From Patescibacteria group bacterium (GTDB taxonomy: Bacteria; Patescibacteriota; Minisyncoccia; Moranbacterales; DUUL01): DNA of 60,019 nt. Position 1 is the first letter of the stretch. Each line of letters begins with the position of its first letter. Both the position numbers and the translations under genes were made by a program. The stretch covers positions 1-60,019 of the forward strand of contig JAYEFY010000048.1 in assembly GCA_034658815.1 (NCBI GenBank), read 5' to 3'. This document shows positions 3,979-58,596 of the stretch, one piece after another. Below the pieces are notes generated by a model. The model ran no database searches. It saw nothing but the letters and a program-made list of their open reading frames with translations, and was not told where the DNA came from.

Positions 3979-4063
3979 TGCCGGAGAGAGGACTCGAACC
4001 TCCAAGGGATAAAATCCCACTAGCTCCTAAGGCTAGCGTGTCTGCCAATTTCACCACTCCGGC
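3979..4063 (-). tRNA. tRNA-Leu(TAG)
   Basis: GCCGGAG acceptor, CTAGC-CTTAGGA-GCTAG anticodon arm, variable arm. Confidence 0.95.
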
Positions 4064-4156: not shown

Positions 4157-4244
<88 letters not shown>

Positions 4245-13818: not shown

Positions 13819-16800
13819 ATGGATACGGTAATGCACTTAATTGTTATTTCAATCTTGATGCCTGAAGAGAAAAAGCAAAAACAAAAAAAGGACAAAATTA
13901 AGTTTGCTGATACGGGCGAGGTTCAGAAGGTGTTAAAAAAACTCAAAAGAGAATCGGAGGAAGAAGAAGCGTCACGTCATGCTAAGTCATTGGGAATGCC
14001 CTACCTTGACCTAAATATTTTTCCTATTGACCAGGAACATGCGACATTCATTTCTGAAAAAGACGCACGCAAATATCGTGTTGTTGTTATTCATAAAATA
14101 GAGAGAGATACGAAGATTGCGACAACACGCCCAAAAGACAAGGAAACAGAGCAGTATATAAGTCAGTTAAAGGAAAAAGAGGGGTTAAAAATAAAAATGT
14201 TTGTTGTTTCGAAAACATCTTTCGAACGAGTATTGGAAGAATATAAGAAAACTAAGCTTGTTGATGTTTTTGATTATCTTCGAATGGGATTAACTGGTGA
14301 AGATCTTGAAAATTTTGAAAAGGATCTGCAAGGAATTATTGATCTTGAGAAAAGAATTAATGAATTGCCTGTTACCCAAGTGCTTAACATGATTATTGCC
14401 GGAGCAGTCAAGCTTAACTCGTCTGATATCCATTTTGAACCGCAAAAAAACCAAAAAGTCCGATTACGCTATCGAATTGACGGTGTTTTGCAGACTGTTG
14501 CGGAATTGCCGATCAATATTTACCCAACGATAGTTTCTCGCATCAAAATGCTTGGAAAGATGATGATTAATGTTCGGGATATTGCTCAAGATGGGCGTTT
14601 TTCAATAAAAAAGGGTGATGGGAATGATACCGACGTACGTGTTTCAGTATTGCCGGGAAATTTTGGAGAGAACATTGTGATGCGGCTGCTCATGCATGAT
14701 ATTGGTGATCTGACAGTTGAAAAACTTGGACTTATCGGACTTAACCGTGAATGGTTAATGAATGAAGCGGATAAAAAGCAAGGAATTATTATTAATTCCG
14801 GTCCCACTGGAAGCGGTAAGACGACAACACTGTACGCGATCATTAATAGTATTAATTCATCAGACAAAAAAATTATCAGCATCGAAGATCCTATCGAATA
14901 TCAAGTTGCGGGAGTAGCTCAAACGCAGGTTGAAGAGGGAAAAGGCTACACGTTTTCTAAGGGGCTTCACGCAATTGTCCGACAGGATCCGGATGTCATT
15001 CTCGTTGGAGAAATTCGAGATGAAGATACTGCCGCAATTGCTGTTCAAGCCGCTTTGACCGGACACTTGGTCTTTACGACTGTTCATGCGAATAGCTCCG
15101 CCGGAGTTGTAGGGAGGCTTGTTGATCTTGGCGTAAAGCCAGTACTTATTTCACCGGCTGTGAACGCGTTTATCGCCCAACGGCTTTTAAGAAGACTATG
15201 TCCTCATTGCAAAGAGGAATATATCCCCGCACAAGAAACAATTGACATGATTAAGAAGATGCTTTCGCTTATATCGCCGAAAGCGAAGGTTCAAATTCCA
15301 AAAGAAATTAAAACTTTATGGAGATCAAAGGGATGTACAAAATGCCGAGGACTAGGTTATAAAGGGAGGGTTGGATTATTTGAAGTAATGATGATCAATA
15401 ATGAAATACAGCATTTAATTGAACATTTTGGTTCGGAAGATGAGCTTAGAAATGTCGCGTTGGAAAATGGAATGATTACGCTTGAACAAGATGGAATTCT
15501 CAAGTCGATAGACGGTACGACGTCTCTCAAGGAATTACAGCGTGTTGTCGGCAAAGGAGAATACTTGCTGGATCTATATGAAAAAATTGTTATTCAAACA
15601 TTAGCTCGCGGTTTGCTTATTAAAAATGATATTTTTGAACAGGTCAAAGAGGTGAAAAATGATTATGGCGCGATGAAAGAGAAATTGAAACAATTTTCTC
15701 CAAGTGAAATGGTCACTTATATTTTGGCAAGTGCGCTTTTAACCAGCGCGGGCGATGTGCATATTGAGCCGGGAGAAACGGAATTCAAAGTGAGATTTCG
15801 TATTGACGGAGTATTGCACGACATAGTTAGTTTTCCGATGACGGAATTTCTGAACACACTTAATGAAGTTAAGAATCTCACTGGAGCAAAAACTGAATCT
15901 CGAGAAGGAGTAATTGATGGAAGGTTTAGAATAATAATTCAGGAGGAAACCAAGGAAATTACCGATAAAAGTGTTGATATCCGAGTTTCTATAATTCTTG
16001 GCGGTTTTGGGGATATTATTGTGATGAGACTTTTAAACCAATCGGCAAGAGCGACGGTTCTTGAAGAGTTAGGTATTTGTTCGTATAATCTTCAAATAAT
16101 TAAACGAAACGCTTCAAAGCCGAATGGAATAATTCTTAACACCGGTCCTACCGGAAGCGGTAAAACAACAACATTGTATAGTATATTGGCATTTCTTAAT
16201 GATCCACAGCTTAAAATCATTACAGTTGAAGATCCAATCGAATATCAAATGAGCGGTATTTTACAAACGCAGGTAAAAGAGGAGGAGAATTATACTTTTG
16301 CGACGGCGATGAGAGTTCTTTTGCGGCAAAATCCTGATATTATGATGATTGGAGAGATTCGAGATGATGATACCGCAAATACAGCCTATCAAGCGGCACT
16401 TACAGGCCATTTGGTGCTTAGTACGTTACATACGAACAGCGCCGCAGGATCAGTTCAACGGCTTATCAATATGGGAATCACTTCTTCTGATTTGGCAGCA
16501 GGCACTAACTGTTTTATGGCTCAGCGTTTAATTCGTGTTTTATGTCCGTACTGTAAGAAAAAAGTCAAAGCAACGGCAAGGAAGAAGAAGATAATGGAAA
16601 CGGTTCTTGGTCGGATATCGCCGAAAACAGGATTAAAAATTCCGCGAGAGACTGAATATATTTATAAGCCTGTAGGATGTACAAAGTGTCACGGACTTGG
16701 ATATAGTGGAAGAGTTACAATATCAGAGGCATTGGAAATTGGTGAAGAAATGCAGAAGTTTTTAATTACGATGCCTACTACGATCGAACTTCGGAAAAAG

Positions 16801-16929
16801 GCAATTGAAGAAGGAATGCTTACAATGGCACAGGATGGAGTTCTAAAAATTATTGAAGGGGTAACCTCGTTTGAGGAAGTTGCTCGGCTTACTCGTGAAA
16901 TTGGAAAAGGCTCGGAAGAAAAAGTGTAG
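13819..16929 (+). CDS. GspE/PilB-family secretion ATPase with two complete tandem ATPase domains (start may be 13858)
   Basis: Two copies each of SDIH/DVHIEP, GPTGSGKTTT, EDPIEY, GEIRD, His box and CxxC...CxxC. Confidence 0.9.
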   Translation: MDTVMHLIVISILMPEEKKQKQKKDKIKFADTGEVQKVLKKLKRESEEEEASRHAKSLGMPYLDLNIFPIDQEHATFISEKDARKYRVVVIHKIERDTKIATTRPKDKETEQYISQLKEKEGLKIKMFVVSKTSFERVLEEYKKTKLVDVFDYLRMGLTGEDLENFEKDLQGIIDLEKRINELPVTQVLNMIIAGAVKLNSSDIHFEPQKNQKVRLRYRIDGVLQTVAELPINIYPTIVSRIKMLGKMMINVRDIAQDGRFSIKKGDGNDTDVRVSVLPGNFGENIVMRLLMHDIGDLTVEKLGLIGLNREWLMNEADKKQGIIINSGPTGSGKTTTLYAIINSINSSDKKIISIEDPIEYQVAGVAQTQVEEGKGYTFSKGLHAIVRQDPDVILVGEIRDEDTAAIAVQAALTGHLVFTTVHANSSAGVVGRLVDLGVKPVLISPAVNAFIAQRLLRRLCPHCKEEYIPAQETIDMIKKMLSLISPKAKVQIPKEIKTLWRSKGCTKCRGLGYKGRVGLFEVMMINNEIQHLIEHFGSEDELRNVALENGMITLEQDGILKSIDGTTSLKELQRVVGKGEYLLDLYEKIVIQTLARGLLIKNDIFEQVKEVKNDYGAMKEKLKQFSPSEMVTYILASALLTSAGDVHIEPGETEFKVRFRIDGVLHDIVSFPMTEFLNTLNEVKNLTGAKTESREGVIDGRFRIIIQEETKEITDKSVDIRVSIILGGFGDIIVMRLLNQSARATVLEELGICSYNLQIIKRNASKPNGIILNTGPTGSGKTTTLYSILAFLNDPQLKIITVEDPIEYQMSGILQTQVKEEENYTFATAMRVLLRQNPDIMMIGEIRDDDTANTAYQAALTGHLVLSTLHTNSAAGSVQRLINMGITSSDLAAGTNCFMAQRLIRVLCPYCKKKVKATARKKKIMETVLGRISPKTGLKIPRETEYIYKPVGCTKCHGLGYSGRVTISEALEIGEEMQKFLITMPTTIELRKKAIEEGMLTMAQDGVLKIIEGVTSFEEVARLTREIGKGSEEKV

Positions 16930-16935
16930 TAATAA

Positions 16936-16972
16936 GGGACTGTTTCCAAATTCACTCCTACCAAAAATTGTT
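16936..16972 (+). repeat. Solo terminus of the MITE-like family
   Basis: GGGACTGTTTCCAAATTCACTCCTACCAAAAATTGT begins 6 nt after the stop codon. Confidence 0.65.
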
Positions 16973-17059
16973 CTATCTAAGTATTCAAGATTACATCGCT
17001 CGCGAATGGCGGGGTCGGAGAATAAAAGACCGCGCTATTTGACGCAGTAAAAAAGAGGT

Positions 17060-17213
17060 ATTTTTAGCAATAAACTGTAGACAAAAAGCCCACACGCAAG
17101 GTATGAGGTAGGAACAGTTCTGAGGATAGCAAAGCCTAAACCGTACTAACCTAGTCTAAGAAAAGTTCCCGGGAATCAGAGCATTCCTTTGCCTACAGAT
17201 CATCACCAAAAAT
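17060..17213 (-). ncRNA. Rod-shaped ncRNA candidate (6S RNA-like)
   Basis: ORF-free; 17200-17213 pairs with 17060-17073 and 17187-17198 pairs with 17075-17088; central unpaired region and irregular terminal stem; own promoter upstream. Confidence 0.45.
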
Positions 17214-17253
17214 GTAAATATTCTATAACAAAAAATACTGAACACATTAAAGT

Positions 17254-17282
17254 AATGTAGCACATACGGAATATTTTGTCAA
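17254..17282 (-). promoter_or_regulatory. Sigma70 promoter firing into the ORF-free region
   Basis: TTGACA (17282-17277), 17-nt spacer, TACATT (17259-17254). Confidence 0.65.
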
Positions 17283-17412
17283 TAACTTTTAATTTTTTTT
17301 AGTGTGTATCGCATTGGTAATACTCATATGAGATAATTTTATTTCATATTGGGATCAGTCCCATGTGATGGAGAAGCGCTTTTTTGAAAATTTTTTGTAT
17401 ATATATGAACAG

Positions 17413-18423
17413 ATGATAACTTCCAACAAACAACAAAAAAGAGACAAGCAATTTGAATTAACATTGCGTCCGCAGAAAATGGATGAATATGTCGGACAAA
17501 AGAAATTAAAAAAAGCGTTAGAGATTCAGATTGGCGCGGCAAAAGAAAGAAAAGAATCCCTTGAACACGTATTACTGTTTGGCCCTTCCGGACTGGGAAA
17601 GACAACAATGGCGCATATTATCTCAAAAGAAATGGGTGTTGGAATAAAAATAACATCCGGTCCCGCAATCGAACGAATTGGAGATTTTGGTTCAATACTT
17701 ACAAATCTCAATGATGGCGATATTCTTTTTATTGACGAAATCCATCGTCTTAGCAAAATCATTGAAGAAGTGCTATATCCGGCGATGGAAGACGGGAAAT
17801 TGGATATTATTGTCGGAAAAGGACCATCAGCACGAACAATTCAGCTTGAACTGCCAAAGTTTACGCTTATCGGTGCGACAACACGACTTGGAATGTTATC
17901 ATCTCCGTTAAGAAACAGATTCGGAGTCATTCATAAACTTGAGTTTTATAATTCAGATGAGATCGGCAATATTATCAAAAGAACAAGTTCAATTCTGGAT
18001 ATGCCAATTGGCGATTCCGCAAGCAAGATAATTGCAGAATGTTCACGCTCAACTCCGCGAATAGCAAATCGGTTGCTTAAGCGCGTAAGAGATTATGCCC
18101 AAGTAAATAAGAAAGATATAATTGATAAAAAAATTGTCGAAGAAGCTTTAGATATGCTTAATGTTGACTGTCTCGGTTTAGAGGCGTCTGATCGCGAGCT
18201 TCTCAAAATTCTAATTAGTAAATTTGAAGGTGGTCCTGTCGGAGTCCAGACGATTGCGGCGGCATTTTCTGAAGAAGCTCAAACTATTGAAGAGGTATAT
18301 GAACCATACTTACTTCAAGTCGGCATGCTTGAACGGACACCACGGGGGAGAAAGGCAACAAAAGCCGCATACCGCCACTTAGGAATAAAATACCAAGAAA
18401 ACAATCAAATTTCACTCCTCTAG
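17413..18423 (+). CDS. ruvB: Holliday junction branch migration ATPase RuvB
   Basis: [44 protein letters not shown]. Confidence 0.97.
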
Positions 18424-58524: not shown

Positions 58525-58596
58525 CTGGGGAGGAGGGATTCGAACCCCCGAATCACGGGACCAGAACCCGTTGCCTTACCGCTTGGCTACTCCCCA
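58525..58596 (-). tRNA. tRNA-Gln(CTG)
   Basis: TGGGGAG/CTCCCCA acceptor, ACGGG-TTCTGGT-CCCGT anticodon arm, GTTCGAATC T loop. Confidence 0.96.

Follow-up and report, generated by a model that had tools for sequence, protein, structure and literature searches.

Several structured non-coding RNAs (ncRNAs) of bacteria, such as the raiA-motif RNA and OLE RNA, are restricted to certain lineages, have complex and covarying folds, and are independently transcribed with no downstream gene to regulate; their function was unknown at discovery. The genomes of the Candidate Phyla Radiation (CPR; Patescibacteria-like bacteria) measure about 1 Mb and contain very little non-coding DNA. Here we describe an RNA gene in a 60,019-nucleotide (nt) stretch of DNA from a Patescibacteria group bacterium (assembly GCA_034658815.1, contig JAYEFY010000048.1, positions 1 to 60,019), which we call the window. 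The gene lies on the minus strand, with a structured core at 17213-17060, between a secretion ATPase gene and ruvB. An earlier note, made from the sequence alone, had proposed a promoter-driven, rod-shaped RNA at this place, either a divergent and shortened 6S RNA or a novel ncRNA. We are very confident that this is a real, new structured RNA gene, and that it is neither 6S RNA, signal recognition particle (SRP) RNA nor Y RNA. Like the raiA-motif and OLE-type RNAs it is lineage-restricted, strongly covarying, complex-folded and, by prediction, independently transcribed. It differs from them in that Rfam 15 shows no sequence or structure match to any of them, in its CPR-like host class and in its unusually strict synteny.

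In PMC8876501, 6S RNA is described as having a large, relatively unstructured central bubble, with the template strand on the 5′ side and a '-10-like' strand on the 3′ side. The new RNA shares with the architecture given there a stand-alone, single-copy gene for about 150-200 nt, a strong (here predicted) housekeeping promoter, a closing stem formed by the two ends and a long apical arm. However, it has a four-way junction with covarying hairpins on both sides where 6S RNA has an open central bubble, and its closing stem is a near-perfect duplex, whereas that of 6S RNA is bulged or irregular. SRP (4.5S) RNA, likewise a small hairpin RNA of the universal housekeeping type, resembles it in that the long arm contains an asymmetric internal loop, but this loop is invariant in SRP RNA and covaries in the new RNA. 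With the bacterial Y RNA YrlA, the new RNA has in common a long terminal stem and a multi-helix junction module.

The minus strand from 17260 to 17040 folds at -61 kcal/mol, compared with a shuffle mean of -43.3 (z = -4.42), and none of 200 shuffles was as stable. The earlier note had described a fold of about 154 nt closed by a stem of about 26 bp, which agrees well with a core of 154 nt and a closing stem, P1, of 25 bp (14 + 11, with one mismatch; 17213-17188 with 17085-17060). Its GGAAC/GTTCC and TTCTTAG/CTCAGAA pairings are found as well, as part of the long arm P3. The rod with an internal loop was not borne out, however: in the single-sequence fold the supposed loop is a four-way junction, with about six unpaired bases, that joins P1 and P3 to two short covarying hairpins, P2 (17187-17172) and P4 (17107-17089). 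In most homologues P1 is nearly perfect over 25-30 bp. The P3 tetraloop is UUAG in the window and of the UNCG type in most homologues. A hairpin at the P2 position, which the covariance model introduced below treats as an insertion, is predicted in all 33 order-level homologues, with differing stem sequences, and is not predicted in three distant sense rows (L054, L055, L056). Most of 20 class-level homologues folded singly show the long P1 and a multi-arm junction when their dot-brackets are read by eye; P2 is absent from L142, and among the minimum free energy (MFE) folds those of L126, L129, L130 and L139 draw the arms differently. One homologue of 231 nt (L048, G024:C36:2-232) carries an extra perfect hairpin of about 58 nt at the P2 position.

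Thirteen of 41 genomes (own genome and 40 relatives) matched the minus strand of 17000-17300 by blastn. Eleven of these matches were aligned with MAFFT (alignment A1), leaving out one that covers only the promoter-proximal 38 nt (L011) and one of 24 nt (L013). From this unfitted alignment RNAalifold predicts 49 pairs, 22 of them with compensatory double changes, so that the covariation check suggested in the earlier note came out positive. A covariance model, R1, was built from A1, and 74 sense-strand matches fitted to it make up alignment A3. Here standard pairs occupy 91.2% of 3585 cells, compared with 42.7-49.0% when the partner is slid by one to three columns; 40 of the 49 pairs change on both sides, and none of 500 shuffles reached any observed measure. 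The paired cells of these 74 homologues hold G-U or U-G 521 times and A-C or C-A 43 times, so that 91.2% of cells can pair in the minus-strand fold, as compared with 77.9% in its plus-strand counterpart. This asymmetry, in line with the earlier remark that G-U pairs favour the minus strand, means that selection acts on the minus-strand RNA fold.

Parts of the RNA are near-invariant in sequence throughout the order. These are the inner part of P1, where CUGUAGRCAA pairs with UUGYCUACAG; the base (GGGAAC with GUUCC) and tip (GGUUUCGRCU) of P3; and, between them, the 5′-side UUUUCUUAG opposite the 3′-side UCCUCGGAA, forming an asymmetric loop, long on the 5′ side and with a single 3′ base. At the level of the class, inner P1 covaries (e.g., CUGUCGGUAAU with AUUACCGACAG and CUCGAGGCAAU with AUUGCCUCGAG), and the P3 loop region and the tetraloop tip, mostly UUCG, UCCG, UGCG or UACG, can still be recognised. 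No K-turn, loop-E, T-loop or tetraloop-receptor motif and no hammerhead or other ribozyme core was seen by eye, the formal comparison being that with Rfam.

A strong sigma-70 promoter and a termination signal, both predicted on the minus strand, belong to the gene itself. The near-consensus promoter claimed earlier, TTGACA-17-TACATT, is present at 17282-17254, with 10 of 12 matches and a TG before the -10 element, and is the sole sigma-70-type site found by a promoter scan of 16800-17500. A single site of this kind is not above chance within the window alone (shuffles: mean 2.4), and it is conservation that carries the weight. Among 91 homologous loci, 69 have a sigma-70-type site (10 or more of 12 positions matched) on the RNA strand no more than 120 nt upstream of the model start, compared with 14 on the opposite strand and 4 in shuffles. 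Stricter patterns gave fewer loci (promoter 27/91, U-tract 35/91, A-tract 25/91), and in the 27 loci that fit the stricter promoter pattern the -10 element lies a median of 31 nt (range 6-76) from the model start. Judging from promoter spacing, transcription would start at about 17247.

Three terminator-like sites were found on the minus strand, the outermost of which (17048-17029) is followed by CUUUUAUUCU. A U-tract (at least 6 T in 8) stands directly at the end of P1 in 38 of the 91 loci, and a separate hairpin with a T-run lies within 90 nt downstream in 36. One form or the other occurs in 69 loci, compared with a hairpin and T-run in 1 of 91 shuffled downstream regions, and the window has both (U6 at 17054-17049 and the outermost hairpin). 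The TTGACA...TGnTAnnnT promoter and the downstream hairpin with its T-run are also visible in the raw homologue sequences. The same scan of 16800-17500 found neither promoter nor terminator on the plus strand. The region had been called free of open reading frames (ORFs), and this holds: on the minus strand, the 435-bp spacer (16930-17364) between the two plus-strand genes has only chance-level ORFs of 34-35 amino acids (aa). One of these, of 35 aa at 17156-17263 on the minus strand, is kept solely within the same genus. No ORF is conserved among 58 homologues, whose longest ORFs differ in frame and place (median 29 aa). A predicted promoter and terminator, a fold with compensatory changes, the G-U strand asymmetry and the lack of a conserved ORF together describe a stand-alone ncRNA gene.

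Of 151 genomes of the order, 135 contain a match to model R1; among those of high quality the count is 117 of 133, and 71 of 76 genera are represented. The model also matches 81 of 151 genomes in a class sample and 7 of 151 in a phylum sample. A second model (R2), from the trimmed alignment A5 and with only 25 pairs, matches 5 of the 151 phylum genomes, all from the RNA's own class. Weak R1 matches in other classes (G195, G215, G286) are not confirmed by R2 and remain uncertain. Of five R1-negative class genomes from five families, four have an adjacent ATPase gene and ruvB, and in these four the spacer adopts, on its opposite strand, the same shape of a long stem with several arms (MFE folds read by eye); a TTGACA promoter is visible in the spacers of two. 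Given that four of the five keep the spacer architecture, the RNA is probably more general in the class than 81 of 151 genomes. Genomes in the lineage range from 0.5 to 1.4 Mb, a size that, together with the lack of SRP matches and the habitat labels of the sequencing runs, suggests a CPR-like lineage. They hold essentially one copy each, nearly all second matches being the same place on the other strand. True second copies occur in tandem in G140 (C19:22609-23160) and G135 (C99:73-394), and on two contigs (C49, C65) in G020.

The RNA belongs to no Rfam 15 family. The search against RF00013 and all other families that the earlier note had called for returned only four tRNAs at gathering thresholds over the whole window and nothing at the RNA. 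At E ≤ 10, the 541-nt region 16880-17420 gave only mir-4000 noise at 16895-16954. Six distant loci had no match at the RNA at E ≤ 1 (a weak CRISPR-repeat-like match lies elsewhere in L054), and the G312 locus had none at E ≤ 0.1. A blastn-short comparison of the RNA with its own genome gave no rRNA-like or target-like match better than E of about 0.1. Other housekeeping RNAs of this genome are RNase P RNA on C18, tmRNA on C16 and 5S rRNA on C27. Literature searches returned no description of the RNA; supplementary files, which could hold lists of unnamed motifs, lay outside their scope. In the preprint 10.64898/2026.10.21.760802, a term search found no mention of ruvB, Holliday or CPR.

The gene neighbourhood is unusually constant. 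Across 38 order-level and distant loci, ruvB is divergently upstream of the RNA in 33 (in one case 1.2 kb away), and 28 have an ATPase gene of the T2SSE type downstream in convergent orientation; contig ends truncate two of the loci. Among 20 class-level loci the corresponding numbers are 19 and 20. Where distances were available (57 loci), many candidate ruvB starts lie between a few bases inside P1 and about 90 nt upstream of its 5′ end, so many of them fall inside the promoter or leader of the RNA, and the ATPase stop codon is -13 to +60 nt from the RNA 3′ end in most. Since these starts and stops abut or overlap the ends of the RNA, the RNA gene fills the whole spacer. The gaps in the window, of 128 nt and about 150-200 nt, are wider than in those relatives. 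At the class-level loci L129, L133, L136 and L263, the start codon of ruvB touches or runs into the -35 hexamer or the spacer of the RNA promoter on the opposite strand. This leaves almost no room for a ruvB leader or a separate promoter, and therefore the ruvB mRNA may be leaderless or come from read-through. In the window, translation of ruvB probably begins at the ATG at 17413, given that homologue alignments begin at ORF residues 15-17. The RNA is not tied to these neighbours, however. An intact relocated copy in G011 (136.9 bits) stands between an RNase J gene and a peptidyl-prolyl isomerase (PPIase) gene, and the upstream gene of the G010 copy encodes an ATP-synthase subunit. The G011 copy (L029) is about 70 nt downstream of the RNase J gene on the same strand, which may be coincidental. 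Coordinates of the locus are collected in Table 1.

Table 1. Features of the RNA locus and its neighbours in the window (promoter, leader and termination region are predictions)
Feature	Position	Strand	Basis
-35 hexamer, TTGACA	17277..17282	-	promoter scan and direct reading
Extended -10, TGC-TACATT (TACATT at 17259-17254)	17254..17262	-	promoter scan and direct reading
5′ leader, about 34 nt, outside the conserved core	17214..17247	-	length and sequence vary among homologues
P1, 5′ strand; inner part CUGUAGGCAAA near-invariant in the order	17188..17213	-	fold, alignment; 18/22 helix-1 pairs change on both sides
P2, short 5′ hairpin, GGAAU-GCUCUG-AUUCC	17172..17187	-	fold
P3, long arm: base helix GGGAAC/GUUCC, asymmetric internal loop (UUCUUAG... 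opposite CCUC-R-GAA), tetraloop-capped apical helix	17110..17170	-	fold, alignment, covariation of helices 2-5
P4, short 3′ hairpin	17089..17107	-	fold; helix 6, 7/7 pairs change on both sides
P1, 3′ strand, UUUGUCUACAG...	17060..17085	-	fold, alignment, covariation
Termination region: U6 run 17054-17049 (5 nt past P1), terminator-like hairpin 17048-17029, U-rich tail 17028-17019	17019..17054	-	scan and reading
Convergent neighbour, 1036-aa protein: two T2SSE (type II/IV secretion ATPase) stretches and an N-terminal MshEN domain	13819..16929	+	domain search
Divergent neighbour ruvB: RuvB_N, AAA_lid_4, RuvB_C	17365..18423	+	ORF, domain search

Taken as a whole, the locus is probably a class-wide gene for a trans-acting, stable, protein-binding RNA. 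The RNA would act in trans as a stable, abundant and protein-bound molecule. We suspect this because the near-consensus promoter resembles those at stable-RNA genes, and because the RNA is still intact where it lies apart from ruvB and the ATPase gene. P1 may protect the ends of the RNA and, given that the U-tract follows it directly, could double as the terminator stem in many relatives. The recognition surface for a protein partner could consist of the P3 loop, the invariant inner P1 and the junction. Sequence, and not pairing alone, is conserved in these parts and in the helices that flank the loop, which suggests recognition by a protein. As for the fixed place between the ATPase gene and ruvB, overlapping signals may lock the three genes together in compact genomes, which would be the simplest neutral explanation of the synteny.

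Several points weigh against this picture. Five sequencing runs are listed as containing part of the stretch, none of them on record as RNA, and the existence, ends and abundance of the transcript are therefore predicted from sequence. Pair counts in A3 and in the likewise fitted alignment A4 are inflated because both were fitted to the model, and covariation in the unfitted MAFFT alignment is weaker, though it runs in the same direction. The four-way junction itself is not universal in the family, given that some distant homologues lack P2 or P4. Inspection of the P3 loop by eye revealed no known protein-binding motif, and the protein partner is putative, none having been found. Finally, the very strict synteny with ruvB and the ATPase gene would also fit a role in cis, as an antisense RNA, insulator or terminator. 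It is possible, but in our view rather doubtful, that the RNA is the subunit of an undiscovered housekeeping ribonucleoprotein specific to one CPR class, ranking with 6S, SRP or Y RNA. In the boldest form of this idea, the compact four-way junction would mimic a nucleic-acid junction recognised by RuvAB, the recombination machinery encoded next door, and so titrate or regulate it. Alternatively, the RNA would titrate or regulate another core machine, for instance RNA polymerase in lineages without detectable 6S RNA.

Of the described RNAs that could be hidden at this locus, 6S RNA is the one named in the earlier note. A divergent or second 6S-like RNA would mimic an open promoter, bind the sigma-70 RNA polymerase holoenzyme in this way and come off when a product RNA (pRNA) is synthesised. 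The size, the stand-alone gene with a strong promoter, the single copy per genome and the gross layout of closing stem, centre and apical stem would all be compatible with this, and PMC8876501 records bacteria with two 6S paralogues as well as small hairpins in the 3′ side of the central bubble. Furthermore, RF00013 (gathering score 46.4 bits) has no match in the own genome or in any of the 41 genomes of the order, and matches 5 of 151 genomes in the class sample, which leaves most of the class without a detectable 6S RNA. Yet neither RF00013 nor any other 6S family matches the region at E ≤ 10, and the centre of the RNA is the four-way junction, with few unpaired bases and covarying hairpins on both sides. 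In distant homologues the 5′ side of this junction is only 1-7 nt long, which leaves no template strand, and P1 is not a bulged helix. RF00013 matches 22 of 151 genomes of the phylum sample at E ≤ 0.01, 7 of them over the cut-off; the CPR 6S matches carry a GGGAGC...GGGCACCCACCU signature that is absent from the RNA at 17213-17060, and none of 12 phylum 6S loci examined is near ruvB or the ATPase gene. The five 6S matches in the class sample differ in strength: that of G312 exceeds the cut-off, at 52.1 bits, and those of G352, G394, G207 and G367 lie below it; the G207 alignment shows the conserved 6S signature. All but G394 also carry the new RNA on a different contig or at a different position, and because both are present at separate loci in four of the five genomes, the new RNA and 6S RNA are different genes. 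We therefore regard a 6S-like identity as improbable: from the earlier pair of proposals the novel ncRNA is retained, and 6S falls on the lack of an RF00013 match, the junction at the centre and the separate 6S loci. In favour of a divergent SRP (4.5S) RNA, the models for the small and the large bacterial SRP RNA (RF00169, RF01854) match nothing in the own genome, nor in the order (41 genomes). The P3 loop, with its long 5′ side and 1-nt 3′ side, also superficially recalls SRP helix 8. But the positions that would correspond to the invariant SRP loop covary here as ordinary Watson-Crick pairs, and the tip of P3 is not a conserved GNRA loop. Nor was the protein partner found: a search for the Ffh M domain (PF02978) that recovered 14 of 14 controls came up empty in the 41 genomes of the order and in the 151 genomes of the phylum sample, and nothing in the own genome was over the cut-off for the SRP54-type GTPase (PF00448). 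That many CPR bacteria lack SRP subunits is stated in PMC8080830, and SRP identity is refuted for practical purposes. A Y-RNA-like RNA of the YrlA type, working with the Ro60/Rsr protein, could account for the long stem formed by the 5′ and 3′ ends and for the multi-arm module. It is very improbable, however: no Rfam family, the Y RNA families included, matches at E ≤ 10, TROVE (Ro60, PF05731) was not found in the own genome (93.2% complete), which was the only genome searched for it, and a T-loop-like signature was not seen by eye in P2 or P4.

The main rival, though we consider it unlikely, is that the element works in cis on the ATPase-ruvB pair, as an antisense RNA or a convergent transcription unit that insulates against, terminates or down-regulates read-through from the ATPase gene into ruvB; P1 and the flanking A- and U-tracts would then be a bidirectional terminator. 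The class-wide position beside ruvB (33 of 38 and 19 of 20 loci) and the ATPase gene (28 of 38 and 20 of 20), the occupation of the entire spacer in many relatives, and a plus strand with neither promoter nor terminator in 16800-17500 all fit this reading. A U-tract at the P1 3′ end in 35-38 of 91 loci and an A-tract at the P1 5′ end in 25 fit it too. Against it, both sides are so flanked in only 12 loci; a simple antisense RNA or terminator would not need a conserved junction, a sequence-conserved loop or an arm with a tetraloop; the excess of G-U over A-C points to selection on the minus-strand fold; and copies that have left both neighbours are intact (G011, G010). That the locus holds no RNA gene at all, and is instead a small protein gene, a plus-strand element in the 5′ untranslated region of ruvB or a palindrome acting at the level of DNA, is scarcely credible. 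The 35-aa ORF, the position in front of ruvB and the inverted repeat that inner P1 forms in DNA could each suggest it, but the ORF is kept only within the genus, frames and places being different elsewhere. The plus strand pairs only 77.9% of cells against 91.2% for the minus strand, the predicted promoter and terminator face the opposite way, and compensatory changes that include G-U pairs indicate selection at the level of RNA.

A trans-acting, protein-binding RNA thus remains our preferred reading, and the gene joins the few structured RNAs of unknown function that are widespread in bacteria. Given that it is kept class-wide with a near-consensus promoter and dozens of compensatory changes, it is very likely important to CPR biology. 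Concrete hypotheses follow from how strictly it is linked to ruvB and a pilus-type ATPase gene, and the gene is short, its fold is well defined and a covariance model exists. An annotation of this RNA as 6S would be a mistake in CPR genomes, since some of these also contain a separate, canonical 6S RNA.

From the perspective of 6S RNA itself, those of the phylum (L102-L121, from other classes and orders) are short, at about 142-197 nt against the 187 positions of the model. Given that most matches are below the Rfam gathering cut-off, 6S RNA is probably under-annotated in the phylum. The missing SRP components at phylum-wide scale (Ffh M domain) may deserve a separate look. A hunt through the own genome for a motif like SRP helix 8, by regular expression, returned only GC-rich repeats on C8 and C20, unlike SRP RNA. 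These GCAGGCAGG-type repeats (G000, C8 at about 40416 on the minus strand and C20 at about 58716 on the plus strand) stand out in a genome of 39.5% G+C, and the stretches fold at -74 and -69 kcal/mol, respectively, over 200 nt. Within the window, the four tRNA genes identified with Rfam are all on the minus strand (418-491, 3979-4063, 4158-4244 and 58525-58596). The ATPase gene upstream of the spacer is a fused double, both halves of which align by tblastn to the same region of the single-length gene of relatives.

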